This document shows, piece by piece, positions 1,261 to 59,300 of a DNA stretch of 64,000 nt. Positions within the stretch are counted from its first letter, which is position 1. Each line of letters opens with the position of its first letter. This stretch comes from Bilabrum cf. latius (Eukaryota). The stretch is taken from assembly GCA_965178125.1 (NCBI GenBank), contig OZ237769.1, positions 310,001-374,000 of the forward strand. Direction: 5' to 3'. The notes below the pieces were generated by a model. The model did no database searches, was not told the origin of the DNA, and saw only the letters and a list, made by a program, of their open reading frames with translations. The position numbers were made by a program, and so were the translations under genes.

Positions 1261-2602
1261 ATGATCGGATCTATTGCCCAGCTTATGGTTGTATCCGCTC
1301 TTGCAAGCGCCGCCATGGCCGCCAAGTGCAGCTGCAGGTGCGAGGGCTCCGCCGATACCGTGCTGGACGTCACCTCGTGCGGCATGTGCACGGAGGCTGT
1401 TTGCGGGCAGGCCGCGAGCTGCTCTGCTCCCACTGCCGTCTGTAAGTAACCGCACCATAGATGAAATATTTGCTGAAATTGATAGTTTCTGGCTTGTTGC
1501 ACGATTGTCTGCCGCAAACTCTGATCCAAGCACTGCTTGGCAAGGTGTTGTGAACACTCAAGATTATCTCGCTCTTGCTCGCTTGACGGCCCATTGAGCT
1601 AGCAAGGAAATGAATGCATTTTGATTCACAGCACAACTCACCCGGTCGCTTGCGAATTCTTGGAATTCGGTTTGGCCGTTCGACGTCCCGTCTGTTTCCT
1701 GCAACTATACGAACAACATGATCACTGGCCTCTGGCGCCGCCTATCCCACCATCTCCTCGCAGGCGATGCACTCAGCACTTCCATTGGATCCAGTTTCGG
1801 CCTTGGCAACAACTCGGGCAACGGCTCTGGCAACTCGACGAACGATGACATGATGGATGACGACGCGGCTGCTGCCGACGACGATGCCGCTCCCGGCAGC
1901 ACCATCGCAGTGTCTCTGTTCCGGTATAAGGGAAGGTACCTCCAGACCCAGTCTCAGACGACCCCGCCTATCACCTCAAAGCTCGATGGGTGAGCAGGTA
2001 GCAACTTGAAGCACGGACCTGTGTATCCGCGCTTGCACCCCGCGCACGACGGGCAGAGTGCCGTGGAGTACGCTCGCCCGCGCAGTGAGGCAAACACATG
2101 TAGCACCAATTCAACTACTTGCTTTAGTTTTTTTAATATCATGCGCAGTTGCGTGAAGGACATGCCGACGCCCGGCTGGAGCTACACAGCCACGACCACC
2201 ATCGCGGGGCAGACCGTCTAGCAGGACATGCAGACCACAGAGGTCATGGAAATGTACGACGCAGGCACAAAATCTGGATTCGTGGGACTCGCATGGGCGC
2301 TTGCCAAGGTCAAGGGGACGAACATCGACGGCACCAAGTACACCAACAAGTACCTCTGCACGCTCTTCGGCCAGTCACTGACCAACCAGCCGAGCACGCT
2401 CATCGCAGAGGGCGAGATCGCTGGCACCAAGACAGAGGCTCTGCAGCTCTGCCCCGGGAAGGATGCTGCCACTAAGGACAACACTGTCCCCAGGGTCAAG
2501 TCCGACTGCGCAGGGGCTGCAGGGGCGGCGGCGGCGGCGGGCGCCGCGGCTCTGGTGGCTGCGGCTGTGGCGGCCCTGGCAGCTGCCAAGCGTGACGAGT
2601 GA
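1261..2602 (+). CDS. Secreted, probably GPI-anchored or C-terminally anchored Cys-rich surface protein; 3 exons (1261-1441, 1632-1989, 2149-2602)
   Basis: Signal-peptide-like N-terminus, Cys cluster, hydrophobic Ala-rich C-terminus. Introns 1442-1631 (GTAAGT..CAG) and 1990-2148 (GTGAGC..CAG) preserve frame. One in-frame TAG at 2219; ends TGA. Confidence 0.7.
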
Positions 2603-2640
2603 ATAGGGGTGTGACGAGTGGATAGGGGTGTGGCGAGTGG
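2592..2640. repeat. ~19-bp tandem repeat (about 2.6 copies) built on the GTGACGAGTG motif, overlapping the stop codon of the upstream gene
   Basis: gtgacgagtgaatagggg-tgtgacgagtggatagggg-tgtggcgagtgg. Confidence 0.75.
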
Positions 2641-2814
2641 TCCGCGCTAGGCGCCATTAAGGTATCCGGGTGGTGCTGTGGCTCTCTGGATGCCGGGGCT
2701 GCATTGCATTGTGGCGCGGTGACAGCTCAATCGTACCGCGTCAAGACCTGGGTACACCACGCATTGATACTATCTTAGTTGGCTCGCTACGACCACAATA
2801 TACCGGGATGCTCG

Positions 2815-4206
2815 TCACGACACACCCACCGGAGCCACACCCTTGCCCCTTGGATCGCCCAGCGATGCCCCATCTCCACCCTCGTCATCCTCCTCCTCCT
2901 CTCGGTCGCTCAGACTCGCCAGGCTATCCAAACCCCACGAGGGCTGCTTCCTCGCCCGCCCCGTGAGGGAGCGCCCGAGCTCGTGTGACGAGTGAGCGTG
3001 TGACGGGTGTTGTATGCCAGCCGGGGTCATCGCCGCCATGCTGGCATGAGCGCTGGCACCGCCCGCTTTGTGGCTCCGGCCAGGGCGCATAGGACTACCG
3101 GTTGCAACCTCACGGGCTGCTCTAGATCTATCCCCATCCCCAGACCTACCGATTAGAGTACCGCCACCACCACCATCAACACCATCAACACCAATACGCC
3201 CCTGTCTCTATCCCATACCTAGTACCTGCTCCTGCCCTAGCAATGCTCCGAATCCCTGCCCCTGCCCATGCTGATGCCCCTACCCATGCCCGAGCGCCTC
3301 CGCAAGCGCGGTATCGAGATCTAGGTTATCGCGCACCAGCGTCTTTAGGTCCTGCGCGACCACGGCGATGTATGGAACAACCTCTCCCACTATGAAAAAT
3401 GCGCTCACCAGCACGCCAAACGCCCATGGCTTGGCTTCAAACCTATAGAGCACCCCCTCATCGGCTGCGATGACCGGCAGAGCACCGTAGATGAACCGAC
3501 CCACGGTCCAGCCGAAGAAGGTCCAGCCGATCCTGCCGGCTTTCCTTCTGGCGTCTTCGTTTCTGTAGGGAAATCCTCCCAGCTGGCACTGGGCGTAGCA
3601 CCACATGCAGCTTGCGACCAGCGGGGCTCCCAGGTTCACAAAAGCGAGCACGCCGTAGATCGTCTTGAGGACCTCCAAAGTGTACGTTTTCGTGAAGAAG
3701 AAGGCGATGTACATGCCGAGCTGTCCGAGCAATAGGAAGGCGTGGCACACAATATAGGCAATCATGGTGCGCCGCGTGAGCTCCATCTGGTTGTTGTCGA
3801 GCATGTCGCGAGCCAGCGTTTGCGCCTCGATCCACAGCACCGCGAGCAGGAACCAGCACGACAGAGCAGAAAAATCACCCAAATTAAATAGAACGCTAAT
3901 AGTTTTCGAAAGCACTTCGTAGCTCGAGTCGGGAGGGGTGTAAATCCCAGCGAGCGCCTCGAAAAGCTGAACGTTCAGAAAACTGAGAACCGTAAGGCTG
4001 CCAAATGTGATCAGTCGAACGCCCATAGAGTACACTACAAGGGACGCGAAAAACGTTCGCACTTCTGTGAAGACTAGCGTCTTGCAGCTGACTCCGCCAT
4101 TGCAGGTAGAGCGAAACAGCATCGCGATTAGTAGCACGAAATATATTATGGCCAAGGTGAATAATGTCACTCCATTTTGGACAACAAGAGCCGCAACAGC
4201 TAGCAT
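2815..4206 (-). CDS. Multi-pass (~7 TM) membrane protein, THH1/TOM1/GPR137-like, with low-complexity C-terminal tail
   Basis: About seven hydrophobic segments, including LFNLGDFSALSCWFLLAVLWIE. The TAG at 3282-3280 lies in a GHG-Q-GHQHGQGQG repeat, and the frame continues (second TAG ~3210) into ORF 2815..3090, ending TGA. The start codon is uncertain. Confidence 0.65.
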
Positions 4207-4471
4207 TCTATATTACTATGCTGCCGCGCCCAGTCCAATCTTGATGTAGGGGCAAATAGAGCTTAAAGTGGCACAAATCTCCGCACACTACTGCACTAAT
4301 CATCACGCAGTCCCAGTGGCTGCGTTCGCGGCGACCCTGGTAGTTCACCGTGTGTTGAGCCTCCCACTATCCGGTTCAGCGCGCATGAACATGGTACGTT
4401 AATTGCGTCTAATGACACACTCACTGAACTTGAATCGAGCCGCATTTTTGGTCGATACGCTCCGCGCCCTT

Positions 4472-7400
4472 TCACCACAGCAGCAGCCGCGAGGCGGCTA
4501 CTTCCATAAAGAAAACGAACGTTCGCACGCCCCACTCCCCCACGGGGGCTGGATCCCGCCGCCCCGCCGGCGGCACCGGCAGTTCTAAACCGGAAGCCCT
4601 AGCGAACGGCGTCCCCTGGGCCTCCTCGTCCTCGTCCCATGGGTCGGGCACCCCGTCCTCCTCCTCCTAGGCCTACCCCCCCTTGCCCCCCTCCCCCTGC
4701 GCCTCCACCCCGGCATCGAACATCGCACGCAGCTGCGCACCGGAGAAACGACCCGCACCGAAGAGGGTTACAACCGCCTCCGACAGCTCCTTGTACCCCA
4801 GGCCGCCCGACGAATCCCGATCGAACGTTCGGAAATCGTGAGCCAGCGCAGACCGGAACTGCGCCCTCCCTTTGATCCGAGCCTGCAGGATCCAGGCCAC
4901 GAGTTGTTCCCTGTCCACCCGCAGGGCCAGCCGCAGCGTCTTCTTCACGTGGCCGGGTAGCCTGAGGTTGTCCCAAGCAGGCTCCCAGCCCGTCACTGCT
5001 TCCCTGTTGATCTTGTCCAGCACATCGTCCTGTTCGTGCTGGAGCAGCATCAGGCGCACGATCTCCCTGGCCCGGCGCACCCACACCCAGTTCAAGGAGC
5101 CGTCCTCCATCTCAGGGAACACAACCGTGGAGCCCGTCGCCTTCCGCACCATCACCTTCTGGTCCACCGACAGCCCCGACGCGCGGACCAGCCGACCCAG
5201 CCGCGCCGAGCTCCACAGCGACGCCACTGTTCCCTCGGCGTCCTTCCTGGCTCGTGCGATCCCCGAGGAACCTTGCACAGGGTCACCACCCGTGATGGCC
5301 TGGATGGCACCGGAGAGGTCGCTGTACCTGGACAGCTGGTCTGCCCTGGCTCCCTGCATGGACGGCCGCCGCATCTGCATGCGTTGTTCCCTGAGCCGCA
5401 TGCCCTCTTCGCCTGTCTCCCCCCTTCGGATCGCGTCCAGGCGCGCCTTCCTTTCGCTATCCGGAATCGCGATTCCTCCGCCGCCCCCCCCACCCCCGCC
5501 GCCGCTGCGGGGGGGTCGCCCGGCCCGCTGGGGCGAAGCAGCGCCCGAGCCCGACGCCAAACGCGCCGAGTTGGGTGGGTCCGCCGAGCGGCTGCGCGCG
5601 TGCGCGGCGCCGAGCGGAACCGTTTGCGACCGAAGCGGGCACCCGTCCGCGTCATCGTAGCTGCCCGATAATGTTCCCTGGCCGTGTGACGAGCCCGCGA
5701 TGTCCCCCTCCCTCGAGGGGGCCCTGGGCCTCGACCCCCTGGGCCTGGTGGGAACGGTGCCGCGGCGGGAGGATGGTCCCCCCGTTGGGCGGGCCAATTC
5801 CGATTCCGAATCTTCGCCCGAGCTCGCCTCCCCTTCGTCGTTGCCGACGCCGCGCGATGATGCACCCGGCGCCCCGGGGCTCACGGACCCCACCCGCTCT
5901 AGAGCCGCGACGGCGGCGTCCTCGTCCGGTGACTCCGGCGTGTGACGAGCGCGCAGGCCGCCGTAATCACCTGCGAAACGGGAGGCAGAGTCTTGGTCTT
6001 CGCCATGCCCGTGCAGCTGATCGTCTGCAGCGGCCGAGTGGTCAGAAGGAAGCCTCACCCTCGCGCTCTACATCGACATGCCTCCGGCTGTTTCAGAGGC
6101 CGCGCCGTCCGCCTCTGCCTCTGTGAGATCCAAGGCGCCTTCGTGCGCTCCTCCTCGGGTTTGACCACCCCTTCCAGCCTTGTTCTATCGGTTCTAGCCC
6201 GCGCCGCCGGCGGTCACCCGAGTGGGCCTGATATTGCGGCCCGGGCTGTGCGGGGCGTCAATACCGCGACTCCCCCCCGAAGCTGACGCGGCGGAATCTT
6301 GATCCGATCCCGACTCAGCACCCGATCGGCGCGGCCCGCGGCTCCGCAGCAGATCCGATCCTTCGCTCGGCCCCGCGAAGCCTAGATCCTCTGCACCCAA
6401 GTCGTGCAGCTCGTCCGACCCTACGCTCTCCATCAGCGAGCCGCTGCCCATGGAGACGTATTGCCCGTACGACCCTGCTTCTATATGAGCGCTTCCGTTT
6501 GAGGACACGGGGTCCCGGGGTCCATACCCGGAGGCCTCTTCGTGCACGCCATCGCCATAATCGGTAGCCGCCTTGCTCGACGACTGCTTGGGGGAAGAGG
6601 TCACAGACGACGATTCGGCAGCCGCTTTGGAGCCGCGCCTGGGCCGGTTGCCTCCCGCAATGCCCGCGCCGCTGTCACCGCCCTCACCAGTGAATCCCCC
6701 CATGGACACCTGCGATAGCCGCCGCCTCGCAAACCTGACTTTCTCCACGGCACCCAGGTCCGCGATGCTGTTCTTGCGGCCGGCCTCTCGTACCGCACTC
6801 CTCACCAGATCCTGCACCTTGCTGTGTGCCTCTACTTCCTGCAGGGCGTTTGCAGCGCGATTTCTCTGCTCTAGCTTGGCGCGGGCCCGCGACACTGTCT
6901 TGCTCGCCCTCTCGCCCCGCTGCTTCTCCTTCTCCTTCTCCTCCCGGGAGCCCTGCAGCGCGGTCGCTGCGGCTTTCATGTCTGCAGCGGTAAAGAAGCT
7001 GTCGGGCCGTCGCAGGGCCGAGTTGCGGCGTTTCCTGCCCCTGGACCCCGCATTCGACGGCTTGCTTCCCTTGCTGGATTTGCTGCGCGCATCCTCATCA
7101 TCCGGACCACCATCACCACCATCACCACCATCACCGTCATCATCATCACCATCATCATCGTCATCGTCGTCCCCGCTGTCCAGACCAGAGATCGCCGACT
7201 GTGCACCAAGCGACTGCCTGCGGGCTCGCGCCTGACTACTCCTCCTGCGCGCGCTGCCCGGGCCCCCGCCCCCGCTCGTTGTTCCCTGGGCCTCCCTAGC
7301 CTCGTTGTTCTCTCGCTCCAAAATGGCTGCCTCCTCTTCCTCCCTGAGCGCAACTGCCTGGGTCACCACCTCCGATGCGGCAGCGAGCTGCACGTCGGTG

Positions 7401-10400
7401 AGTCGCGTGGCGTCCAGGCCGGCGGCGATCGATGCTCGCCTTCCCCTGATCCGATCCGCAACGGGCAGCTTCGCACCGCGCCCGCCCCTGAGCTTGAAGA
7501 TTCTCCGGAGCACCACCCTCCTCAGCACAATGCACGCGTGTATGATGCCCCACTTGAACAGGGCTTTCTGCCTGGCCCTGCCGCCCACCGGCAGACCTAC
7601 AATGCCCCAGGCCGAACGAGGCACCCCGCCGCGCCTGCACAGCGCCCGCACGCACAAGGCCACGGCGAGATCTTCGGCGGGGAGCATGCACGGCTGCTGC
7701 AGCAAGGACATGAACAGCGCAACTCGCGCGTCGCTGGCATATGCCCTCACGCACCGCAGGACCGTCTTGACGTGCTTGTCGGCGATCTTGGCCAGGCCGT
7801 ACTTGCGCTGGTAGTAGTCGGCGGTTGACAGATCCAGCCGGCTCCACTCGAGGGCAGCCGAGGGAACAGCGCTCTACTTCCGGTTATCGCCCTGCCGGAA
7901 GGCGTCTCCGGCCTGCTTGATCTGCCGGATGCTGCCCTCGGTGGGAGGATCGTCCCCCGCGCCGAGCACGATCAGCTCTGGTCCGAGGGGCTCCAGCAGC
8001 TCCGGTCCGTCCCAGCCGGCTACCCCGGTCGGCGCCGAGGAGCCAGAGGAAACCCCACCCCCGCCCCCGCCGCTGCCGCTGCCACCGGCCGCCCCGCGGC
8101 TGCCGGGCCGGCTCGAGTGCGCGCTGGTGATCGACCGCATGGACCGGCCCCAGTTCGCACTCGTCACACCGAGCACGTGCCTCCGGGACCCCACGCCGCG
8201 GGTCAGGGCTAGGGAGGGCGGCGCGAACCCGATCCCACTCGTCACACCGACACCAAGCAGCGGTGACCCCCCGGCAGTGGCCGATGCGGCTGCTGACGTG
8301 GTCGTTTGATGACCCCCCGCCTCTCCCAACCCGCCCCCCACACCGTACAGGGACATCGCCCCTCCTGAGGGCCCCGGCCGATCCCCCCCGCCGCTTGTGC
8401 CCCTGCCAGCGCCCGTCGTGTCGGAAGTGCCCGGCCTCCCCAAGGAGGACGAACCGTCTCCGCCCTGACCCCCACTCGTCACACCGACCTAACCCGCCTG
8501 TTCCACCAGGCCCGCCAGCATGCTCCTCAGCAGCGACTCCCTGTCGTTGAGGATGCTCGTGATCTGGCCCAGGCACCACCTCAGGGGGTACGGGGCCTTG
8601 ATCTTGCCCCTCTTCTTCATCAGGGTCTGGAGAACGTTCGCTACGGCGACACGGTTCTTCGTCCGCCGCTTGGTGCCTGTCCCAAGGGAAAACCCCTTGA
8701 TCCGAGTGAACCGGGGACGTCCCCCCCGAGCACCCCTCGACCCCATGGCGGGGGCGCGCAGCCGCCGCTTCCCATCTGCGACCAAGTGCCCCCCCTCGTC
8801 CACGCCCAAACCGGAAGCATCCCCACCCACGCCCGCAAAGAAATTGCTCGGCTCCGCACCGGATCCAGCCCCCTTCGTCGCCCGGACACCACCACCAGGC
8901 AATGCACCCAACAGGCTATCAGCATCGCTGTCCTCACCTGCCCCGGCGCTGCCTGTGCCCCCCCCTTCTGTGCCACCGATCTGAACGGATTTATGCGCCT
9001 GCTCGCTCATCCCCGCCTATTTTCGCAGAGCCGCTAGCACGCTAGCTCCTTGCTTTACCCGGGCTCGTAGCGCAAGCACGTGCTCCATCCACAGCCTCCG
9101 CCGCAGCTGCTCCTCCTCACCCCAGCCTCCCCGCGGGGGGCCTCTTCGGCCCTTCGGTTTCTTCGCCTTGAGAACCTTCCCTCCTGCGGAACTGGCGCCG
9201 CGCAATTCGTCCTCATCCCCGCGGTCTCTCTGATTCTTCTTTTTGCCCCCCGTCCTGGATCCCGCCCCCTCCCTCCCCTTCCCCTTCGCCTTGCCCTTCC
9301 CCTTGCCCTTGCCTCTGCCTCTGCCCCTGGTACCAGCCCCCCTTGCTGCATCGTCGGGCCCCGATAAGCCGACATCGCTACTTCCGCCGTCGTCTGGTGA
9401 CCCGCCGCCCCGCCGACTCCTTTTGTGTTTCTTGCCCTTCTTCCTGTGTTTCTTCCTGTGCTCCTCTCCACCAGCGTGACTCCCGCCGCCGCTGTTGCTG
9501 CTGTCGGTGCCAGACCCTGCCTGCCCTTCCCCGTCACCGTCCGCACCCCTTTTGCTGTGCCTGCGACTCTTCCTCCTCCTGCTCCTGCTCCTGCTCTTCT
9601 TCCGGTCTTTCCTGCTCTTACCCTCCCCATCGGCACCACTTTCACCACCGGACGATTCATCAATTCCACCACCCGGACGCCTGCCTCGCCGCCGGCTGCC
9701 GTTCCCGCGTCTGCCCTCGCCCTCGCCGTCTGAACCTGTGCCGGATCCTTCGCGACCACCGCCCCTTTGGCCACCCCTTCGACGGCTTCGTCTGCCACGT
9801 CCCTTGCTGCTTCTACTTTGGCGACCTTTTTTGCCACCCCCACCCCCTGACTCCTCCTCGTCTCCGTCCTCGCTGCCGGAATGGCCACCCCCGCGCCCGC
9901 CCTTTCCTAGTCTGCCCGTTCTGCGCTTCCGCGTGCCTCCCTCACCCTCCTCACTCGTCACACCATCCGAATCACCTTCAGCCAAGGACCCCTCGCTGCC
10001 GTACCCCTCGCCGGTTTGCCCACCCCCACGGACTGTGGCCGGCCCGCCGTGCCTCCGTCCGTCACCATCACCACCCATGCCGCTGCCACCGGACGACGCA
10101 CCACCCACCCCACGCGCTTCACTCGTCACACTGGAACCAGCCCCGGAGCCCCTCCGTCGCCCGCTGCCTCGAGAACTGCTCCCGTGGCTGCCCCTGCGGC
10201 TGCCCCTCCGCATCTTCCGTCCGTGGCGAGACCCCCCCCCAGAACCCCCCCCTGGAGATCCATCCGCTCCGGCCGAAGAAGAATAAGAGCCACCTCCTCC
10301 TTCGCCATCGCCCCCGCCGGTGCCGTCTTGTTCCCCAGCCATGTCCAGCAGGGCATCCCGGTCGCGGATGCTGAAGGACGCCCGCGACAGCCGCCTGCTC

Positions 10401-13390
10401 TTGCGCCTTTGTCGCTTCATCTTCATTTTCAGCGTGGCGCGCCTCCGCTCCGTCTCATCACGAATCTGCCTAGAGGCCTACAGCAGAGCGCCGTTGATCA
10501 GCTCGACGTCGGCCGTGGCATGCATCTTCTCCCACTCGCTGCGGCATGCCTCCCACTTGTTCCTCAGCATGAGCGCCGCGCGCTCCAGCACGTCGGCGCT
10601 GTACCCTTGCAACGCAATGCCCCTGGCCTGCGCCACCAAGCGAACGTTCTCCAGCTCCTAGCGAAGCTGCACCATGGCGGTCCGCGCCACGGCATTCTCG
10701 TCCTGCTGATCCGCCGCCCGCGCAGCGTGACCCGCCGCAGCGGCCCGCTCCACGTCAGTCTTCGCCCTCGCCTCCTCCATCCGATCGATGTGTTCCCCGA
10801 GCCGTCGCTCCCACAGTCCCTGGGAACAGTCCCACAGGTAGGCCAGCGACCGCCCAACCTATGCGCACGACCGGCCGAGACGGCGGAACAGCTCCGTGCC
10901 CGCTGACTCGTACGCGCACAGCACGTCCACGCTCACGGAAAGCAGTCTCCTGGCCTGGAACGCCCGTCGGGACAGCTCGGAGGAATCCAAGATAGCCCGG
11001 CTTAGCCCGTCCTCGTCGCCCGCCACCCCAAGCAAAGCGTCACCCTCGGCGTCTCTGCGGAGCAGCTGCTCCATCCGGGCCGACAAACCGGAAGTAGCAC
11101 TCACACCAGCACCAGACGATAAAAATGAAGAAGAAGACGCCGCGGACCCGCGCGCCTTGAACGCATCGAGTGGGGAGAGGCCATGGTGACCCGGACCCTC
11201 CTCCTCTGCCGAATCCACGATTTCAGCTCCGGATCCGGGACCCGTCACCTGCCCCAGCCGCGCCTTCCAGTACCCCTGCAGGGCCAGCACGAGCGGATCC
11301 GTCCTCGTGGATCGCAGGGACAGGGCGTGCTCGGGGGCGCGGGCCGGCGCGCTGCCCGACGTCAGCTTCCAGCCACCTGTCGATGTCCCTGCCCCGCGAG
11401 CCATGGCCCCGTGGTGTCCCCCCGGTAGTATGACGAGTGCGAGGTCGGTGCCACCCATGCCTCCCTCTGCGGCAGCAGCAGCAGCAGCAGCCCAAGAGCC
11501 GTCGCCGATGCTGGCCAAAGCAGCGACGGCTGCGCGGGCCGCCCGATGCCCCGGCCGATCCAGTTGTTCCCTGGCGCCAGCCAGCTGCTCATCCAGCCAA
11601 TTTCCGAGCATGCGAGCTGCCCTGCGGTCAGACAGCTCGGACACGATCTGAGGCCACAGGAGACCCCGGAGCAGCGCGTCAAGACGGGCACCAACACCCT
11701 CCCCCCGCGTTGTTCCCTGAAGCGTGCTTGCCTTAGATAGGCGTGCGGGCCGGGGTACCAGCGCCGTCGAGTTGTGGGCAGCAGAGCGCGGGATCGGAAC
11801 CGGGAGGCGGCCGTGCCTACTTGAGAGCCCGCGCTGTTTTTTAGAGGCCATCGCACTCGTCACACGGATACCACTCGTCATATGGCTGCTCCCGATGGCG
11901 CTGCGCCCCCTTCTCAGCAGCCGTCGGATCTCTTGAGACCGCGCGGTGGCGCTATCGTGCGCTGCACCCAGCTCGCAACGCCGACGTGGACCGTGTCCGG
12001 CTCCGAATCCGCCCACCTGGCCGTTCCGCTGCTCCGCAGTGGAGGCAGAAGCTGGCGATGAACGTTTACCACCACGTGATGAAGAATAAGAAGAAGAAGC
12101 GGCGGAAGAACACAGCAGAAGGGTAGGGGAGGCCAGCGGAACCGGCTGCATGCGGCCGAGCCCACGCCGCTGCGCCCCCGCAGCACGACCCGCCACCCTG
12201 CTCTGGGCAGCGAGTCGGAGAGCCTCCACGTCCTCCGGGGTGGGGGACGGGGCGCGGGCGCTGGGTGGGGCCACCAAACCGGAAGTGGTTGCGCCGCCGC
12301 TCGAGTGGTCCTGCTCCTCATCGAACTCTGGGAGTGAGGGCATGTGCGCCATGGACTCGGAATCGTTGTCGCCGAGTCCGCGGAGCGTGAATTTGTGCAC
12401 CCCGGAACCACTAGTCACACCGCCGTGCACGAATGTACCATGTGACGAGTGCAATGGGTCTCCCCGTGGTGTCTCCTCCTGCGACGCATCCGTGGGGGCT
12501 GCGGGCATCGGCACTGGGGGGGTCTCGGGATGGTGACCCCTCGAGGGGGGTGGCCCCGGGGGATTTCCCCTGGGGGGTGCATGGCCGTGTGCTTGTCCCC
12601 TCGGCGGGGGTCCCGGCTTTCCAGGTGGCCCCGGCCTCGAGTGGGGTGCGCCGGCTTCTGCTGATGGGTACTCCATGGGCGGCTCGGTTAGGTTATTCCC
12701 AGCGTGCTGCGGCCCGTACACGCCCTCAGGTTGTGCTTCTTCTCCACTTGCATTGGACTGCTTGGACTCTGACCAGTCCTGATGAGGCCGGTGCTGCTGC
12801 TGCGGCCGGTGCTGCTGATGCGACCGCTGCTGTTCGAGCCTTGCGACCATCCGCTCGATGTCATCGAGAGAGTGAGCAGCGGCTTCTGCCTGGGCACCTG
12901 CTCGGCGTATGGCGATAGCAGCGGTCTTTCGAGCGCCAGGACCGCTTCTTTGCTGCCATCCCGGCCGAAGAGCATCTGTTTTCCTCATTGCCTGCGACCA
13001 TTGCAGACCTGCTCGCCGCTGGGTGGAGATTCGCCCCGCGGTCGATGCTCGCTTTTCGCTGGCCGCCCTGAGGCCGATGCCCGCGAATGGCATTCTTGAT
13101 ACTGTGGCTTTGCTGCTTGTGGACCGAGAAGCTGTTGTGTGGCTCCCGATTTTCATCGCGCTAATAAACTCCGAGATTGCTGGCTCGACCGTGTCCAGTT
13201 TTGCTTCCTGCTCATCTCCATCTGACTGATCAGCGACCTCCTGCAGAACAGAATCAGCTTCCCGTAATACCTTCGCCACGGTTCCGTCCTTCAGTGCGGC
13301 GTCTCTGTGCCGCTAGTAGCCCCGGCGGTCTCCCGCATAGTCGATGGCCGACGCAAAGAGCTCGTCTTTGCTTAGCTTAGGCTGCTGCAT
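4472..13390 (-). CDS. ~2970-aa low-complexity/coiled-coil protein with C-terminal EF-hand (YGL motif region reminiscent of TSNAXIP1-like ciliary proteins)
   Basis: ORFs 10859..13279, 9017..10426, 8489..9010, 7874..8482, 6194..7750 and 4673..6058 share one frame and are separated only by TAG (~12). ATG at 13390, TGA at 4474-4472. EF-hand FRTFDRDSSGGLGYKEL; motifs LRWCLGQITSILND and YYQRKYGLAKIADKHV. The family call is tentative. Confidence 0.75.
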
Positions 13391-35687: not shown

Positions 35688-35805
35688 AATTATACAACTG
35701 CAACTCTTATTTTCTTTATAACAACAACCAATTGCATCCATAATTATGCTAGATTATGTGCGATGATTTGGTTCAAACCACTTTGTGTTCTTAAGTGGCA
35801 GTTAA

Positions 35806-47791: not shown

Positions 47792-47824
<33 letters not shown>

Positions 47825-48446
47825 GGCTACTGCTGCGTGTTGTCAGGGGCTGGCCGGAACACGCGCAGGAGGGCAAAGGCGCCTGTGCCGCGGCCGCACG
47901 CTCCGAGGGGTCAGCCACGGAGCATCCCGCCGCTGCACCGCTCGGAGTGGGCTAGCTGGACGGCTCGATTGGCTCGAAGGAGAGTGAGGCAGTCATCATC
48001 GAGGCTGCTCGGTTGGCCGGTTCCTGCAATTTGGGAGCGCTCGACGAGGCGGCCGCTGCTGCTGCTACCCCTGCCGGGGTATTCCCTCCGGTATCCGCGC
48101 ACGGATGGACGCTACTTACAGCTGTGGAAGTCCACGGAGTGACCGTCGGGGCTGCCGCCGATGATGCACTGCCTCCTCTCGTGGGCGTACGTGGCCGGCT
48201 GGCACCATGCAACCTAGAAGTGGCTTTGCGGTCGCTGCATTCCTCCAAATTACAGGAAAGCATACTTGAGATTCTTGTATTCAAGCGCACTCGTGCCTGG
48301 AATCGTCGTGGCTGGGGCGTGGCGTGCTGTTGAGTATCCTGCCAAATCTTGCCACCACAGCTAGTAGGTCCGTCCGCTGGTCTGCCGCTCTTAGTATCGG
48401 CAGCACCAGCAGCACCGAACCGAAATTGATTCATAGTGGATCGCAT
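46818..48446 (-). CDS. Paralog B of the same family
   Basis: ORFs 47952..48512 and 46959..47735 are joined via TAGs. Domain GASVIFAPS..FVLEWL..CLF(TAG)IEVATAEDGEKL..NDPTIAME. TGA at 46820-46818. Confidence 0.6.
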
Positions 48447-49646: not shown

Positions 49647-52198
49647 TTACGGCCATTTGGGGCCACCGCCGCTATTTTCATTACTCTGGCGCTTCTAGAC
49701 GGCCTCTAGACGAGTTCTTTCCCTGCCAGGCCCACTCTGCACGAGCACTCCACTAGACGATCCAGCACCGGCTTTCGTCGTTTCCTATAAGGGCCGAAGC
49801 GTTGCCTGGACAACAGCGGCACGACCCGCCGATGTGCGGGCGGAGGCAGCGAGGGCAGCAGCATCGCTTCGTGCCCGAGCAGCAGCTTCCGCCCGCATCC
49901 TCCCCCTCTTCAGAACGGAGCCCTCCCCGGTTGCGACCCGCCGCCGGACCTCCGCCCGCCTCTATTGTTCCCTGGCCAGCTGCCGGGCCCGCGCCTTCTC
50001 TGCCCTGCGCTGCCGGCGCAACAGGGTGCCCGCGGGCGTGGATCCGGAGCCGGAACCTATCCTCTCCATTGTGCCCCTGGCTAAAGTGCCACCTCCACCC
50101 CCATCTCCACCCGGCGCAAATCTCGTGCTCGCGGTCATAAAGCGGCCATCTTGGACTGCGCCTGCTGCCTCCATCTATCCCGCCAGGCTGCCTGCATCAT
50201 CACCGCCACTGCCGCTGCCGCTGGTGGTGGTTGTGCCGGTGGTATCCGACCGGGAGGAGTCCAGCGCCCGCTCCACAGCGATGGTATCATCTCTCCCGTT
50301 GAGAAGCCTTTTTAGCTTGCCCGCAACGGCCTCCAGCCTGCGAGCGTCCTCGTCGGTTGCAACCTCGATCTCCAGCAGCCCCCCCCTCGAGCCTTCGTGC
50401 GGGCCAGGGTGCCGGGCCGCAATCACGCTGATGCGCTTGCCAGACAGCCACCGGCGCACGTACGCCCGTTGTTCCCCTGTAGGGGCGAACACCACGCTGC
50501 GCGCCTTGCCGCGACGCCGCACACGGAACGTCGTTCGCTTGCTGCTCATCAAGGTTCCGCTGGTCGCGGGATCGGCGCCGCGCTCGCGACCTGCGTGGTG
50601 CCGGCCGTTTGCGCCCGGACTCGTTGGTTCCGTTGGTTCCCCGGTAGACATTTGTATGGTCCTATGGGGCCCGTTGACAGCCGCACTCGTCACACCTCGA
50701 TCACGTCTCAGCGGTTCGTCTGTCCCAGGCTGGCGCGGGCTGCGGTATCCTCTTGCTCGTCCTCCTCCTCCTCCCCACCCCGCAGATCTGGGTGTTCCTG
50801 CTCCCCTGGAGCCCATGGCCCCGGTTGCCAATGCCAGCGGGGAAGATGATGCGACCGGGGACGAGTTGCGACGAGGATGCAACTGCGCGGCGGGCTCTCC
50901 CTGCCCTGCATGAGACTAGGCGTAGGCGCCCATGAGCAGCATTGGTCGCTGCTGGTCGGGACTGCATGCATACACACCGTCGGTGCCGCCGTCAGCGATG
51001 ACCATGCCAGGGATCACGAGCGTTTCATCCCGGCCTACTGAGCCGATACCGTGTGACGAGTGGGCCTGCCGGGCTACACCGGCGGCGTCGGCGCCGGAGT
51101 AACCGGAATTGCCATGGTCCTAGCCAGTGCCACCAGAGTGGTCGGATATGGCACCAGGGTGCATCGCACTGCCGTTACCGGTACCGGGGATGCGGGTCAG
51201 TGTCCTGAAACGGCCAGTGGGATGGTGACCCGCAGTGGTACACGGCTGGCTTGGGTCGAAACCGGGGTTGCGACCAGAGTCGCCACGAGCCGGTCGCCGG
51301 CCCCTGCTTGGAGCAACTGCTCCGCGGGGCTGCTCGCTCTCGGCCTGCACGCCCGCCCCCGATGTGCTACATGCCTCTATCGGGCCGGTTTCCCACTGGC
51401 ACTCTGTATCGGCTGCTCCCTCCCTTTCACTGGAATCGTTATCGCACTCGTCACTCCCCGTTTGCTCTGCAGAGCCCTGCAAGTACTGCTATCCTTCACC
51501 GGTCGGTCTGCTCCCCAGTTGTCCCTGCCCCTCCTTTAATCGAGCGGGGCCTCTGGCGGCTCCCACATGACCAATAGGTTCGATGGAATCCATGTTTCCG
51601 GCATAGGCGGGGTGGTATAGCGCGTGCACGGATTCCGTCATCAGCCCCGCGATGCCTTGTGCTCGCCCGCGAGCAACTGCTCCGGGTACCGAGGAGCGGG
51701 CGCTTCCCGGTTCTTGCACGGACAGCTCCATGCTATCCTGCTCGCTTTCATTCCCGTTCATTTGCACGCTTTGGCTGGAGCTAACGTCCTGGGATGACAT
51801 TTCTTGCGAGGGCGCCGCCATGACAAGCTGCTGCTCCACAATCCGTCGCTGCTGCTGGTAGCCGAGCGTCTGTTGCTGAGCGTCCTTCTAGGCAGCGCCT
51901 CTCCATGTTCTAGGAACACTTTCATCGAGCAAGGATGCTGCAGGTCCTCTTGGTGTCGCTTCCGAGTCGAGCCGGTCCGTGGCCCTGGATGCCTCCTTAG
52001 CGGGTGCGTGTTCGGGTCTTCTTCCCGCCCCCTGTTGCATCGACAAAGAGTTATTAGTTCTACCGAGACTTTCAGTCCTCGCCGAGTTTGTTGCTTGGTT
52101 AGGGTGCGTGGACGACAGCGCAACGGGGAGGGCATCCTGACGTTGACTTTGGGCTGTTTGCGGCTCACCGCCAGTCTGCACTGGTGCAGGGTTCCTTC
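49647..52198 (-). CDS. Paralog C of the same family (more diverged); first exon not located, 3' end ambiguous
   Basis: ORFs 51888, 51489, 51120, 50175 and 49962 are in one frame joined by TAG. Domain ARSVVFAPT..YVRRWL..LLEIEVATDEDARRL..DDTIAVE. Probable acceptor CAG at 52201-52199. First non-TAG stop is TAA at 49649-49647. Confidence 0.55.
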
Positions 52199-52926
52199 CT
52201 GCGAGAATATACGAGACAATCAATAATATTTTGGCGCTGGTGTGTATTAAATGGCAGGTGTCGCAGCGAGCGAACGTGCCGCATGTTGACCCAACGCTGC
52301 CCGGCTATGCACATCGAATCATATGGAGAGCACCAGGTCGTGCAGAGAGCTTTTCGGCAATGTAAAGCTTCAACAATGATTCTTGCGTATGCTACGAGCT
52401 AAAGTCAGCAACAGACAGCCTGGCGCAATTCCAAAGTACGCAACAACTGCGATTCAGCCGAACACGAGCCGGCGCTGCAGCCGAGCTGGGTCTCCAATGG
52501 ATATCATAGAAACATTCGAACATGTTTTAATTAATCTAGTGCGGATTCCGGCCAACGTATGCGGGAGCGACCTTACGTTTCAAGATGGCGCTGCGCGCAG
52601 AGGAAGATGGTGCTTCAAGCTGGGTCGATGTGCCACAGCCCATTCCGCAGTTTATGGAACAGCTGACCCAGTTCTCAAACCTTTGGCACAATAGCTCAGT
52701 ACCGTGTTTGATTGTCCGGTGGCAACTCTCTTTGACTTAGTAGAAGCAAGTTCGGGCACAACGAACTTGCTCTTTCGCCGGCGGTCGCGCAGGGTGGTCG
52801 CAAAGGCCGGTTGCAGTGCAGGGATGGCGAGGATCTCCCATCGACGCGGCCACATGGACGCCGAAGCAAGCACTTTCAGGCAATTGGACGCAATGAACCA
52901 CTTGATGCGTCCGTGACTCGGCTTCT

Positions 52927-53079: not shown

Positions 53080-53358
53080 GGGTGCGCCCGATTGAGGTGG
53101 GCTCGGGGGGGGGCGGAATGTGTCGAGCACAGAAGCGGAGGAAGACTTGGCTACCTTGATGCCCATTCATTGCGCATTGGTGCCTGTGGCGCTGAGAGAG
53201 TGAGCGTAGGCGATGGAACACGCCTTGGATCTAAGTTGTTATCTTCATCACATCCGAGTGGACACTCGTCACATATTCTGTCTGCATCCGTGGATGCACC
53301 GCCGCCTCCCACAAACGAACTAAACCGATTATTCTTAAATCAGCAAGAGTATTATCGT

Positions 53359-55420
53359 ATGTCACGATGGGGCCCCGCTAGTGGAACCCGCGATACCGGC
53401 GCGGATGAGAGTGAGACAATGAATGTCCCAGCACTTGGGCATGTTTGCATGGTTCCAACCGACATTACTTATGGCCCATTGATACATAGTGCAATCTAGC
53501 GATACGATAGCACTGTATTCGCTTTCCACAGATGTCAGCAAGCGAAAAAGATCAAGATGGGGAGCACCATCCTCAATTAGCGAGGCTGGTGATAGCACGG
53601 GTGGCCAGCCGCAGCCTCAAAATACGGTAGTGGCGATGAATTAGCAACACCAACTCAAAGATTCGTCTAGTTTTACAACTCCAGCCCTGCCCGGGCAGGC
53701 AGTACATTTGGCCCAGCTTCCAGTATCGAGTAGCAGCAGCTATCAGCCTCACTAGGCTGCAAGCACCCTGCCAGGGCAGACATACTACCAGCAGCAAAAC
53801 CACGGACCAAGCGATAGGGAAGCGCAATCATCCCACCAGCACGGCACGATCAGCCCGCATGGGCATACGATGCACCACCACTTCAACCCACAGCCGGGAG
53901 GCCCAAGCCCAGGCCAAGCCGGCGCCGCCCCATGGCAGGCCACCGCGCACTCATCACACCATTTCGGGGGCAACTCCCACGTGCTTTCACTGCCCTCTGC
54001 TGCCACTGGCACAGGCATTATGATGCACCCGTCACTGCCCCCGAGCAACGCGTTTGTAGCTGCACCTCCGCTCGCGTCTGGAGTGGTGCCGCCGATAGGG
54101 ATCGGATCAGCAGGGATCGGATCAGCAGGGATCGGATCAGGTGGGAGTGCCGCCGTGCTGCCTCCATGGATCCGGCAGCACCCCGCCTGGGCAACCGGTC
54201 GAAGTGTGACGAGTTCTGGCGACGTGACAAGTGCGCTGGATCCCGGGTCGCTGCCCGTTGGGCATGCGGCAGAGGTGCTTGGATTTGCGACCAAGCAGGG
54301 CTTGAGGCGCCCTGTGGCCCCCGAAAGGATCCGGGAGCATTCGGGAGCACGCGGGTAGGGCAAGGAGCAAGAGAAGGAGAAGGAGAAGGAGAAGCAGGAC
54401 GGCAATGCGATCCCGAGTGGAACCGCAGGGAGCTCTGCTGTGACCACGTAGGATACCTTCAGCGGAACCACCGGCGCCGCGCAAGCGCACTGGCCTCCGG
54501 TGGACTTGCAGGCCCTGGCACGAGTGCCCGGCACGGTGGAGGCCGTCCGTCTCTCGGCGGCTAAGGGAATCGAACCCGGGCGGCTGGAGGCTAAACTCAG
54601 GGAGTTCTACCGAAAAGCTGAGGGGATGCGGCGGCGGTGGGCGCGCAAAGCCGAGAAGCTTGCGATGGAGGATGGTGCGGACCAGAAGGAGCAGGACGGG
54701 GCTGACTTCGGCGGGGAGGAAGAGGAGGGGGGTGGGGGTGCACTGCACGGTGGTGGGGGCGAGGGGCATCTGAAAGAGAGTGACGAGCAGTGGGATCGGA
54801 TCAAGAGGCTTGCAGGCGCATCGCACGGAAGGAGCAGCGTTTCGGCTCCGGATCATTCTGCGAGCACGGGTGCAACGGTGGTTCCAACCGCAGAGGACTT
54901 GGCAGCACTGGCGAAAGCATGCCTTGGCAGGGCAACGATCGATGGTGTGACGAGTGATGACGCTGCCCGGGGGCTGTTCGCTGCCCTTGATTCGCCATCA
55001 CGGCCCCTGCCCGCCGCAGTACTGCCCTCGAGGCTGCAGGACGTGGGGGTGGGAGTGCGTGGTGGTGTGACGAGTGCTGATGGTGATGGGCAGGTGGCAC
55101 ATGGGCCCATGCCGAGTACTAGGGCTGGCAGCATGGGCATTGGCAAGGGCATGGTCGCGGGCCTTGGAGGCGTCGAGCAGCAGGAGCAGCAGCTGGCGAT
55201 GGAGGGTGAGGGACTGGCCCTTGGGCTCGTGCGGAGGGGAGGGGAGGCAGAGTCAGAGGTCAGGAAATCCGCCCGCAAGCGGCGGGAGTGGTCCCGTCGC
55301 CAGGCAGGCTACAAGCAGAGGGTTAGAGCTGGGCAAGAGAACGAGAAGGGGAGGGGGAGGGGAAGGAACTTGAAGGGTGGAGGGGGATCGGAGCGCACGG
55401 GGCTTGGCCTCCCCGTCTGA
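53359..55420 (+). CDS. ~645-aa hypothetical protein with KRKRSRWG (ULM-like) motif, possibly splicing-associated; exons 53359-53410 and 53532-55420
   Basis: Intron 53411-53531 (GTGAGA..CAG) keeps phase; four in-frame TAGs; ends TGA. The functional hint rests only on the SRWG motifs. Confidence 0.6.
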
Positions 55421-56374
55421 GTACATCCCCGGTGTATAGGGAGTTCGTTTCGTGCATTCTCGTTCATCACCGTTGGTTTTGGGGACCGCGTCAATCGAGG
55501 ATAGGTGCGAAAGTTCTAGAGATCCAGGATCTAGCCGAAAGGTTGCAACCGGCTTGGGATCTGTCTTGCGGCGCCGGCAGCAAACGCGCCGGCATTCGGA
55601 TAATTTCAAGCGTAGCGGCTTGCTGCTTCAGTACCAGGTGCCGTAACGGTCATGTGAGTATAGCATGCTGCTTCTTCGTATCAGTGGCTTGGTGGCATTG
55701 TTGTATTTGAGAAGGAAGATTTGCGACCCGTGCTGATCCTGTTGTTTTGTCTGTGCTTCGTTCGTGCACGAAACTCGGTAGTTCAGCTGTCTGTACCTGC
55801 AATTGAGCCACTAACATGTGTTTAAGCTTGACCTTTGCATTGGGTTGCCCGTACAGGGCGCGTTCGCAAAGCTATTCAATAGACCCGTTGTGGACTGTGC
55901 AAACTTCTCTGTGTCGCACGATATCTGAGCACAAGCTTGCATCGTTACGCTTTGATACACAAATAAAGCATGATTGGGAGCTGCATGCAGCCACTGTGAA
56001 TGCTGAGCAAGGCATCTTGATCAGTTTCTGATTTCGGGGGTTGGGTTCGTTGGCTGCTAGAGTGCTCTCGGCTGCTAATGCTACCTTCTGTGGTCATGGT
56101 CACGTTTCTTTTCACGATGTGTTTATCACCAATTTGATTCGCTTGGAACTGGTCTGGATTTTCCGCATCCGAGTTGGCACCGCCGTGCCTGTAATGTCTT
56201 CTCGCAGTCCATCGCAGACTGATTACGCAAGATAGAAGAAGGATCCATCGGCACGATAACATCATTAGTAGACATAGGTTACTGCATCAGCTACTGCGCA
56301 TCCCGCTCGGCCTCACAGCCCAGCGCACCGCCGTACAGCAAGCCAGCGCGTAGCAGCCCGGCTCCTGACCTGAT

Positions 56375-59300
56375 ATGCCAAGCGAGCATGCACCGGCCAA
56401 AGGATCAGAACCGAATGTAACGCATTCACGCGCAGTGCAGGCAAACGGCGCCGCGAAGTTTCGCTGCGCAAGGCTGCACGATGATGCGTTCAACCGGCTG
56501 CAGGCCTCCTCCATGAGATTCTCAGGAAACAGCATCAGCACGGCGCGGTATTCCGTGTTTTCCTTCTTGTTCGTGAACTTGTTCGAATTCTTTCGGATCG
56601 TCGCGAACATTTACTTCCTGCTCATCTCGATTCTGTAGGTTGCGACCGACCTGTCCCCAACGAACGAGTACTCGACCATCCTGCCGCTCATTGTGGTTCT
56701 GATCATCACGATGATTAAGAACGGGATAGAGGACTACAAGAGGCACCAGGCGGACGCGGAGGTGAACGCACGGACGGTCGTCAGATCGAAAACGAGGCGG
56801 GAGATGCAGCCGCTGCTCAACCAGTGGACCGCCGAGCACGCCGCGCGGGGAAGCTAGCAAGGTTCGAGCCAGGGCCAAAACCGCACGCTACATAGCAAGT
56901 CTCACATGCTCCGATCTATCACGGACGAGCCCGCGTGGAAAGACATCAGGGTGGGCGATTTCCTCCTCGTGAAAGAAGGCGATGAAATTCCAGCGGATCT
57001 GCTCATCCTCGCGAGCAGTGAAGAGGGGGGCAAGTGCTTCACGGAAACCGCCAACCTCGACGGGGAGACGAATTTAAAGAGGAAGCAGGCGCTTAGGGCG
57101 ACCTCCGAGGCCATCGGCCAGCGGGAGACCCCGAAGGACGACCCAATCCACCCGTGGATCAAGCTGGCCAGGGGCACCGCATTGAGGGGAGAGGTTCAGT
57201 ACGAGCTACCCAACGACCGCCTCTACACCTTCGTCGGGACGATGAAACTGCACGCTACTTAGGGGCCCATCCACGGCCAAGTGCAGGCGCAGTCACCCGC
57301 CTCTGGGCCAGCCCGGCCTCTGCATGGCGGTGCAGGGGAGACTGGGGGAAAAGCGAGCGGGGAGGACCCGCTGACCATGCTGATCCCGAGGAGGAGCAGC
57401 AGCGCCTTGCAGAACCAGACAGGGCAGTCCTCTTTGGAAAGCGGCCCAAACGGCCTGCAGAGCACCGCATCCGCTGCCCCGGCTGCAACACGCACAACTC
57501 CGGGCCACGGGGACGACACTGAAGGTGCTGTTGATACAGGTGCAGGGGGGTCCATTGTTGGATCCGCCAGCACAGGTGCCATCCCGGGCAAAGGAGCAGG
57601 CGCAGGCACGGTGGCTAAACCGGAGGTGTGTCCCATCGGCCCGGAGAACGTGCTGCTTCGCGGCTGCAAACTGAGCTCCTGCGCTCACGTCGTTGGCTTC
57701 GTGCTATTCACAGGCGACGACACCAAGCTGATGCGAAACTAGAGGCAGCCTCCCTCCAAGGTGTCCAACGTCTACGCGCAGCTGAACCGCCTCATCTTCT
57801 TGATCTTCTTGGTGCAGTTCGTCCTCATCGTCATCAGCACGATCGCGTTCTTTCTGTACAGCAGGCGAGCCACAGAGCTTGCGGAAGGAGACAAGATAGG
57901 CTACTGGTATCTGGAGTCCGTGTTGGAAGGGGGCGGCGCATCCTCGGCGGTGTCGTTCATCACCTTCCTGATCCTGTACAACAACCTGGTGCCCATTTCG
58001 CTCTATGTATCGCTGGACGTGATCAAGGTCACGCAGGCCAAGCAGATCGAGATGGACAGGGCCATGGCGTACGACCCGGCAGAGGACGACCCATACCTCG
58101 CGATTGAGAGGAGAAAGAAATTCGGAATGAAAGATCAAGGAGGTGAGGGTGGTCAAACCGGCGAAGACGGTGTCGTTCGGACGGACTCAAGCCAGATGCA
58201 GGTGCCGCTCGCTGCCGCCACCGGCAGCAAATTGGACCCTGCCTCTTCAGCCGCGGCCGCTGCAAGCAGCAGCGGGGCCAGCACCCTTGGAGCGCACGGG
58301 GCCAGCTCCGGCGCTGGGGCCGATGCATCGAATAGCAACATGGCGAATGCAGACGACAGGCTGCCCCCGGCAGACAATTCGGAGCTGAAATTTGCCAAGG
58401 CCCGCACGTCAGACCTCAACGAGGACCTTGGCCAGATCCAGTACATATTCTCCGATAAAACGGTAAGTGCACGCTACTGCGGTGGACTGTCCGCGCCCCG
58501 CTTCTCAGTCTCGTGCCGCCTAATAAAAGTGATTTGCGCGCGACTCCGCATTATGCCACTACTACCCTGTGCGAGCACACTATACTGCATTCGTCTCCTC
58601 CGCAGGGCACCCTCACTCGAAACATGATGGAGTTCCGTAAGTGCTCCGTGGGCGGGATCAGCTACGGCTTCGGTACCACGGAGATCGGTCGCGCTGCGAT
58701 GCAGCGGGCCGAGCAGACGGGTGTGCAGGGCGAAAGAGACGTGCCGGGCGTGCTGCCTGGACAGATCGCGCAGCAGCTCTCCAATGCAGAGTGCGCGCAA
58801 GCCTTCAGAGACGTATCGATCGCGTTTGATGACCCCAGACTGCTGCTTCATCTCTCTGGGTTGGGAGAGGTTGGTGCAGGGAACGTCCAGGAGGAGGAGG
58901 AGGAGGAGGAGAAGGAGAAGGATGGCGGTGTTCGAGGTAGTAATGCTGTGGATGGGAGGGGTCAGGTGCAGAGCACAGCAGGAGCAGGAGAGGAGCACAT
59001 CCCCAGGGCTTGGGGAACACCCGACGGGCGACAGGCCGTGGCTTCTCCGGACGGTGTGACGAGCGAGGCGGGGGCGCTGCTCTCGTCGCCCGTAGTCTCT
59101 GAGCAGGAGGTCCCAAGCGGCGGCAAGCATGACAGCGGTGCGAGCGGCGACGCGGCTGGTGGGGGCACGGGCTTGGGCGGTGGGGGTAAAGGCGGTGACG
59201 CCGTAAAGGGGAAGGTCGGTCGCGTTGGCACCGCAGTTCCGCACGGCGCCGCGCAGCAGATTGCGGACCACATGGTTGGGTCCACGGACCCCTCCATGAC

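Follow-up and report, generated by a model that had tools for sequence, protein, structure and literature searches.

A 12-base word held at the DNA level in the coding DNA of Bilabrum cf. latius, a candidate lineage-specific recognition word

What keeps one 12-base word intact, copy after copy, inside the protein-coding DNA of a eukaryote? The question is raised by a 64-kb stretch of Bilabrum cf. latius nuclear DNA (assembly GCA_965178125.1, contig OZ237769.1, positions 310,001 to 374,000; hereafter the window, whose own coordinates are used throughout), in which the word GTGTGACGAGTG recurs on both strands; all word counts refer to this one window unless another sequence is named. The 17 exact copies listed in a preliminary description of the sequence were all found at their positions and on their strands, and no copy occurred in any of 100 dinucleotide-preserving shuffles. 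When up to two mismatches are allowed, the window contains 40 sites, of which 17 are exact, 14 carry one mismatch and 9 carry two, against 5.62 expected, the largest number in any shuffle being 13. Six of the seven sites that had been named as one-mismatch examples are indeed of that class, and the seventh, at 5684, carries two mismatches.

The word has sharp boundaries in sequence space. Its nine-base core TGACGAGTG is present in 26 exact copies, whereas each of the 27 one-off neighbours of the core is found between zero and three times, 20 times in sum, and the 10-mers of GTGTGACGAGTG were seen 21 to 23 times against third-order Markov expectations of 0.07 to 0.16. The consensus around the core can be written as (G)GTGTGACGAGTG followed by C, A or G; the extension is weak, with G preceding the word at 18 of 31 sites and the C, A or G after it being followed by G. 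GTGTGACGAGTG is a sharp DNA word. Its family is defined here as 34 members, namely the exact and one-mismatch sites together with three two-mismatch sites in which the core is intact.

Shuffling of 15,918 coding bases, 1000 times in each of two ways, bears on the level at which the word is held. This coding set contains 12 copies of the 12-mer and 19 of the core. Shuffling synonymous codons, which keeps the protein, left on average 0.105 copies of the 12-mer (maximum 2) and 0.67 of the core (maximum 7), and shuffling the order of codons left 0.002 and 0.064, respectively. The tripeptide VTS occurs 13 times where 3.9 are expected from composition, and the excess is carried by the codon string GTGACGAGT; since AGT makes up only 7% of serine codons, codon usage predicts a share of 0.011 for this string. 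The codons were counted in a standard-code set of open reading frames (ORFs) that includes a few wrong frames, and the 6 obtained for GTGACGAGT is a lower bound. Two T-ending codons are kept in GTGTGACGAGTG despite a strong preference for G/C-ending codons. The earlier proposal that the constraint acts on DNA and not on protein is borne out by the synonymous shuffles: GTGTGACGAGTG is held at the DNA level.

The word had also been described as overlaid on coding DNA in several frames and both orientations, and this is what we found. Inside ORFs lie 31 of the 34 family members, 18 in sense and 13 in antisense, with three outside, a distribution that argues for DNA rather than RNA as the level of action. 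The exact copies comprise 11 in sense, 5 in antisense and 1 outside ORFs. Neither 18:13 nor 11:5 differs from 1:1 (two-sided binomial, about 0.5 and about 0.2), and the word is neutral to orientation. Each of the translations reported before, (G)VTS, HSSH, TRHT and LVT, was seen, and the copies in ORFs are distributed among frames as follows.

Sense, frame (G)V/M-T-S: 16 copies
Sense, other open frame (RDE-stop at 2590, SDEC at 51445): 2 copies
Antisense, HSSH type: 7 copies
Antisense, RHT type: 3 copies
Antisense, LVT type: 3 copies

Both sense copies in the other open frame (2590 and 51445) have lost the cysteine codon of the word while the nine-base core is intact, so the core is kept and the edge gives way to the protein. 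The principal host ORFs, read with TAG as glutamine, and the family members are listed below.

ORF A, 4472-13417, minus strand: 2981 amino acids, 12 in-frame TAG codons, 12 family members; no Pfam match, largely disordered
ORF B, 14036-29902, plus strand: 5288 amino acids, 23 in-frame TAG codons, 8 family members
ORF C, 30045-35093, plus strand: 1682 amino acids, 6 in-frame TAG codons
ORF D, 53483-55420, plus strand: 645 amino acids, 4 TAG codons, 4 family members; partly conserved in a related metagenome contig, L001

2590-2601, plus: GCGTGACGAGTG, one mismatch; reads R-D-E and, with base 2602, forms the TGA stop of the gene ending at 2602
2609-2620, plus: exact; 3' untranslated region, unit 2 of a 19-base tandem array; in-frame TGA three codons past the stop
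2628-2639, plus: one mismatch; unit 3 of the 19-base array
2983-2994, plus: exact; antisense (HSSH) in the TAG-extended tail of a THH1/TOM1-like gene
2998-3009, plus: one mismatch; antisense (HPSH), 3 bases past the 2983 copy
5940-5951, plus: one mismatch; ORF A antisense, RHT frame
8158-8169, minus: exact; ORF A sense, GVTS
8236-8247, minus: exact; ORF A sense, GVTS
8473-8484, minus: exact; ORF A sense, GVTS, preceded by an in-frame TAG codon
9952-9963, minus: exact; ORF A sense, GVTS
10120-10131, minus: exact; ORF A sense, SVTS
11428-11439, plus: one mismatch; ORF A antisense, LVI
11854-11865, minus: exact; ORF A sense, RVTS
11872-11883, minus: two mismatches, intact nine-base core; sense (MTS), 6 bases upstream of the 11854 copy
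12409-12420, minus: one mismatch (synonymous, ACG to ACT); ORF A sense, GVTS
12440-12451, plus: one mismatch; antisense (HSSH), inverted pair with 12409
14712-14723, plus: exact; ORF B sense, GVTS
15163-15174, minus: one mismatch; ORF B antisense, TRHI
18129-18140, plus: two mismatches, intact core; ORF B sense, MTS
18459-18470, minus: two mismatches, intact core; ORF B antisense, LVT
19955-19966, minus: exact; ORF B antisense, HSSH
26824-26835, minus: exact; ORF B antisense, TRHT, within a long insert splitting the kinase domain
29562-29573, plus: exact; ORF B sense, GVTS
30274-30285, minus: exact; ORF C antisense, LVT
50684-50695, minus: exact; ORF E sense, GVTS
51051-51062, plus: exact; ORF E antisense, HSSH
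51445-51456, minus: one mismatch; ORF E sense, other open frame SDEC, cysteine codon of the word changed
53263-53274, minus: one mismatch; outside the listed ORFs
53948-53959, minus: one mismatch; ORF D antisense, HSSH
54204-54215, plus: one mismatch; ORF D sense, SVTS
54945-54956, plus: exact; ORF D sense, GVTS, flanked by blocks conserved in frame with L001
55065-55076, plus: exact; ORF D sense, GVTS, where a segment of about 40 amino acids missing from L001 begins
59054-59065, plus: one mismatch (synonymous, AGT to AGC); sense GVTS in a non-conserved P4-ATPase loop
59332-59343, minus: one mismatch; antisense, in the P4-ATPase loop that also holds the 59054 copy

The copies had been placed mostly in low-complexity linkers, and they do lie in disordered stretches rich in G, S, R and E, none of them within a Pfam-matched domain; their settings include the P4-ATPase loop and an insert of about 1150 residues that splits a kinase domain. 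Their flanks are unique. Within 40 bases on either side they look unrelated, and an all-against-all comparison of 150 bases on either side of 31 sites, with the word masked, returned only overlaps between neighbouring windows and chance matches of 14 to 19 bases, so that the long shared flanks which the preliminary description had named as the mark of a repeat relic are lacking at both distances. No partner word was enriched within 80 bases on either side. The copies are clustered (13 of 30 gaps are at most 400 bases long against 5.3 expected, P = 0.0005), partly because one 20-kb stretch is free of them, and the two members of a close pair have the same orientation in 8 of 13 cases. The tandem amplification noted at 2592-2640 was recovered as an array with a period of 19 bases and 2.6 copies; it is the only head-to-tail arrangement, all other copies being dispersed. 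The spacer between adjacent copies varies, being 7 bases in this array and 3 and 6 bases in two adjacent pairs, and two pairs are inverted, 12409/12440 (19 bases apart) and 50684/51051 (355 bases apart). At the small gene ending at 2602, unit 1 of the array supplies the stop codon and unit 2 the second TGA, and this 3' end is transcribed, since a spliced contig of run X3 spans 2148-2715.

Contig L001 (10.8 kb) is syntenic with the window from 54.5 to 63.5 kb, and 1026 of 1439 ungapped aligned codons encode identical residues (71% amino-acid identity). The 10.8 kb of L001 contain no copy of GTGTGACGAGTG with at most one mismatch, and 80 metagenome loci (638,893 bases) contain no 12-mer and six cores. 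In ORF D, the copies at 54945 and 55065 bracket a block that is conserved with L001 in frame, and the residues opposite the two GVTS peptides are SSHSSS and SSESPEG, respectively; the loop holding the two one-mismatch copies of the P4-ATPase gene (59054 and 59332) could not be aligned with L001. In both genes conserved with L001, the copies therefore stand in unalignable segments between in-frame conserved blocks, which means that they occupy real coding DNA in fast-evolving segments and rules out a splice signal. On this comparison GTGTGACGAGTG is lineage-specific, absent from the one close relative compared; the direction of the change, a gain here or a loss there, is an inference. Viral contigs scanned for two cores within 30 bases yielded at least 114 stretches, none of which contains two or more 12-mers; with the commonest five-base spacer (15 matches), the paired cores form a (TGACGAG)n heptamer repeat, which makes the scan uninformative. 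In the literature searched (open-access papers and bioRxiv), the 12-mer and the core were found only within primers and constructs.

L001 has an enriched word of its own, GCGCGGCGCC (9 copies in 10.8 kb), which was set aside. It is paired with GCGGAAC, an instance of it is found at the orthologous position upstream of ORF D, and it resembles an ordinary promoter element. The bipartite element GCGGAAC-N4-GGCGCCGCGC, present upstream of the conserved part of ORF D at 54462-54482 in the window and 1097-1117 in L001, is probably a promoter module; between 922 and 1390 in L001, five GCGCGGCGCC copies fall within 470 bases, several of them adjoined by GCGGAAC.

The window is eukaryotic, as its spliced GT..AG introns and its genes for a P4-ATPase, a PIP5K, a THH1/TOM1-like membrane protein and a protein kinase show; it also encodes a Sir2-like protein and has a G+C content of 63%. 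Contigs of two sequencing runs skip two introns, 1442-1763 and 1989-2147, of the small gene that has its end at 2602; these are the only two introns in the presumed-RNA contigs (whose type is uncertain), which are otherwise collinear with the DNA. Long neighbouring ORFs share a frame, and the breaks between them are nearly all single TAG codons. When TAG is read as glutamine, ORFs A, B and C have no internal TGA or TAA, are intron-free and are mostly disordered, and ORF B shows a weak cyclase-like match and a protein kinase domain whose halves are about 1150 low-complexity residues apart. With this reading, ORFs cover about 52.6 of the 64 kb (overlaps counted twice), about 80% being coding. 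The word had been said to lie in exons: it does lie in coding DNA, but the window is intron-poor and its ORFs are whole only with TAG as glutamine.

In the alignment with L001, a TAG stands opposite a sense codon 17 times (14 glutamine codons, CAG or CAA, 2 alanine and 1 glutamate) and opposite another TAG once, and no in-frame TGA or TAA was found within the 1439 aligned codons; examples are the window TAG codons at 56636, 57740 and 60049 and the L001 stretch 3882-7791. Judged by this alignment, both the window organism and L001 read UAG as glutamine. The ORFs end with TGA and TAA. TAA is probably still a stop codon, in a UAG-only reassignment similar to translation table 15, because about 7 TAA codons would be expected in the roughly 10,000 codons of the giant ORFs if it encoded glutamine (from the CAA:CAG ratio) and none was seen. 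Passages of a report on the flagellate Iotanema spirale present UAG-only reassignment to glutamine, with UAA as a stop, as a first, and describe such reassignment as rare among nuclear genomes (PMC5304391). Gene callers will misread this genome unless TAG is translated as glutamine. The THH1/TOM1-like gene (2815-4212, minus strand), read in this way, passes the TAG at 3280 and continues to the TGA at 2815, gaining a disordered tail; a protein search with it gave two matches of 318 and 326 amino acids, which were probably cut at a TAG by standard-code gene calling. A protein search for relatives of ORF D gave no match. In the Atlas, one protein of the window has diatom and oomycete neighbours and another has streptophyte ones.

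Which process, then, keeps the word? Our preferred answer, held tentatively and with somewhat less than even confidence, is that GTGTGACGAGTG is a DNA recognition word specific to this lineage and accommodated where the coding sequence permits. A sequence-specific factor would read the word on double-stranded DNA, and selection or biased fixation would hold its copies exact. It would be written into genes because nearly all of this genome segment is coding, and would build up where the protein is tolerant, in fast-evolving disordered segments rich in G, S, T and A, in frames that give harmless peptides (GVTS in sense; HSSH, RHT or LVT in antisense). The copies would most likely have arisen by a few substitutions in look-alike sequence and not by transposition. 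That a protein reads GTGTGACGAGTG and that selection or drive keeps it is what we infer, whereas a role in chromatin or recombination rather than in promoter control is a guess, made because the copies lie deep inside very long genes. We favour a recognition word because the frame pattern suits substitution from look-alike G-V/A-T-S coding better than random insertion, because the core stays intact where the edge gives way to the protein, and because the two T-ending codons persist against the codon preference of the genome. If a protein does read the word, DNA pull-down would open direct access to a genome-wide system in a little-studied protist or alga, one in which a DNA signal and coding share the same bases of a genome that is about 80% coding.

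Several observations weigh against a recognition word. Beside the 17 exact and 14 one-mismatch copies, only about four of the two-mismatch sites exceed chance and the mismatches cover 10 of the 12 word positions, a pattern that one burst with subsequent neutral decay would explain just as well. Sense VTS copies show three single mismatches, and two of these (12409 and 59054) are synonymous changes at the third codon position, the outcome expected of neutral decay under protein constraint. The region from 30.3 to 50.6 kb, 20 kb of the 64 kb seen, is without any copy, and four sequencing runs show no variation at the copies they cover, so that selection gains no support from population data. For a recombination hotspot motif, erosion and not accumulation would be expected, and we know of no process that drives such a word in a eukaryote.

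A more specific proposal, which we regard as doubtful, is that GTGTGACGAGTG is a eukaryotic nuclear self-marking word of the kind seen in bacterial uptake sequences and HIP1, raised to tens of thousands of copies across coding DNA by a DNA-level process, with a dedicated reader linked to recombination, repair or chromatin. In bacteria, hyper-abundant exact coding words reveal uptake, repair or methylation systems; to our knowledge they have no eukaryotic nuclear counterpart, and no similar eukaryotic phenomenon was found in open-access papers and bioRxiv. If the proposal were true, this would be the first such system outside bacteria, and it would have reshaped the proteome, through the GVTS excess, in a lineage with UAG as glutamine.

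The analogy with uptake sequences and HIP1 drawn in the preliminary description holds for behaviour in coding DNA and fails for membership, since the host is a eukaryote and the word is not palindromic. DNA uptake sequences of the Neisseriaceae (DUS) and those of the Pasteurellaceae (uptake signal sequences, USS) are, like GTGTGACGAGTG, over-represented short exact words with unique flanks. Excerpts of the literature on them describe a lineage-specific exact word of 9 to 12 bases, about one per few kb, in both orientations and mostly in genes, with perfect copies outnumbering near-misses above chance, as is the case here. Passages of a study of uptake sequences in bacterial coding DNA report a raised tripeptide frequency, frame bias and poorly conserved positions, which match the raised encoded tripeptide, the tolerated frames and the poorly conserved positions of GTGTGACGAGTG (PMC2817400). 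DUS and USS, however, belong to naturally competent bacteria in which the DNA receptor of a type IV pilus prefers the word, whereas GTGTGACGAGTG is carried by a eukaryote that has introns and a variant nuclear code; terminator-type inverted pairs are not a feature of GTGTGACGAGTG, and its codons are non-preferred. HIP1 (GCGATCGC), in the parts of the cyanobacterial literature that deal with it, is likewise a hyper-abundant exact word over coding DNA, of debated function. It differs in being a palindromic octamer tied to GATC/CGATCG methyltransferases, whereas GTGTGACGAGTG has 12 bases and no methyltransferase site of that kind.

Eukaryotic factor sites offer a second comparison. The half-site of basic leucine zipper (bZIP) factors is TGACG, and the fission-yeast M26 hotspot, ATGACGT, which resembles a cAMP-response element, works inside an ORF; TGACG is part of TGACGAGTG, and ATGACGA is the reading in three variants. 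Factor sites typically form homotypic clusters in which the spacing varies. Twelve exact positions are nevertheless far sharper than such sites, and the copies lie deep in ORFs and are not concentrated at promoters. Short interspersed elements (SINEs), miniature inverted-repeat transposable elements (MITEs) and introners share with the word a dispersed, lineage-specific distribution in many copies; unlike them, GTGTGACGAGTG has no shared flanks, terminal repeats or target duplications, and its copies are not spliced out. Polar words such as Chi and KOPS follow the direction of replication, and the mixed orientations of GTGTGACGAGTG within 15 kb do not favour that family.

The main rival to a recognition word, which we consider unlikely, is that the copies are neutral footprints of a burst of 12-base insertions across the genome, surviving only where four added residues were harmless and now decaying; their source could be filler DNA, copied from some abundant RNA or DNA template, or the scars that a mobile element leaves. 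The length of the word is exactly four codons, and the numbers of exact, one-mismatch and above-chance two-mismatch copies (17, 14 and about 4) agree with one burst and about 0.8 changes per copy, as does the spread of mismatches over 10 of the 12 positions. L001 has no copies, the copy at 55065 stands at the edge of the segment that L001 lacks, and adjacent copies with short spacers could reflect repeated insertion. At 54945, in contrast, the window is no longer than L001, and random sense insertion should use both open phases, whereas 16 of 18 sense copies are in the VTS phase and the cysteine codon of the word is kept in none. Neither a target-site duplication nor a shared flank was seen, the word bears no likeness to telomere-type repeats in the window, and no enzyme is known to us by which a constant, non-palindromic 12-mer with fixed ends would be inserted. 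A telomere-like or healing insertion was also rejected, as the 19-base unit of the array has no other copies and no telomere-type context. If the word were a footprint, it would reveal a short-insertion process that writes four-residue insertions into proteins.

Quite unlikely, in our view, is an RNA element, in which an RNA-binding protein would recognise GUGUGACGAGUG in mRNAs, or a guide RNA of about 12 bases would pair with it, with a role in stability, localisation, modification or translation control. Guide-target duplexes are typically twelve bases long, the exact copies in ORFs lean towards sense, and three tandem units lie at or just past a stop codon in a transcribed 3' end. The sense excess, however, can stem from a G-rich coding strand (GC skew) and the cost of the antisense peptides; neither the family nor the exact copies depart from 1:1, 13 copies are antisense, and the only Rfam family in the window is one tRNA.

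A mutation or repair bias without any reader, in which local composition and biased gene conversion favour the string, is very unlikely. In its favour, the genome is rich in G+C, and further words are moderately enriched in it, namely CAGGGAAC (18 copies), GAACGTTC (10) and GGTTGCAACC (5). These are far less sharp, CAGGGAAC having 62 one-off neighbours to its 18 copies where the core has 20 to its 26; moreover, the T-ending codons are kept against the G/C-ending preference, and the 10-mer counts far exceed their Markov expectations.

It is highly improbable that the word is a splice signal or what remains, as a core, of some longer interspersed repeat such as a MITE, SINE or introner. Its reverse complement starts with CACT and the word ends with AGTG, which we take to be like the ends of CACTA-type elements, and the inverted pairs 12409/12440 and 50684/51051 would suit such an origin; yet flank similarity and a partner word are lacking at the distances given above, 8 of 13 neighbouring copies are direct, and the two inverted pairs have no target duplications. 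Solo ends of CACTA-like elements were rejected on the same grounds, target duplications not being seen and most copies being direct. A 5' splice site or introner was rejected because the two introns seen have GTAAGT and GTGAGC at their 5' ends and the word is found at neither end of them, and CAGGGAAC as a paired 3' splice site because the sole close pair, 14712/14801, would remove 92 bases (14712-14803) and break the 5288-amino-acid frame. Finally, a short linear peptide motif GVTS under protein-level selection has a next to negligible probability: 16 sense copies do encode (G)V/M-T-S in disordered regions, but one codon string carries the excess, the remaining VTS (6) are near the 3.9 expected, the 13 antisense copies give other peptides, and the loss of enrichment under the synonymous shuffle refutes the motif unless the gene models are wrong.

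Several further features of the window were recorded. The word CAGGGAAC, extended as CAGGGAAC(AAC), is found for example at 4906, 5386, 7281, 11566, 11712, 19144 and 21017, mostly in sense and in the frames REQ and QGT, and L001 has 5 copies of CAGGGAAC in its 10.8 kb. The palindromes GAACGTTC and GGTTGCAACC are 14- to 88-fold over third-order Markov expectation (example sites 4517, 4823, 10642 and 13530, and 3101, 26525, 50356 and 55542, respectively); GAACGTTC has the GAAnnTTC form that we take to be that of a heat-shock element.

Between 41% and 100% of sampled words from window positions 2500-12499 are present in runs filed under three organism codes in three studies; it may be that other organisms accompany the source organism, or that the run labels stand for close relatives. 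Just past a tRNA-Met gene (35587-35660) lie two arrays of a 92-base satellite, at 35806-36450 (7.0 units) and 36970-37374 (4.5 units), with 96-97% matches. Three minus-strand ORFs, 44462-46354, 46818-48707 and 49647-52526, share the module ...VIFAP...EIEVAT.ED...L.G.D.TIA.E..., which has no Pfam match and sits at the C-terminus of the first two but inside the third; among the three, only 49647-52526 contains copies of the 12-mer.

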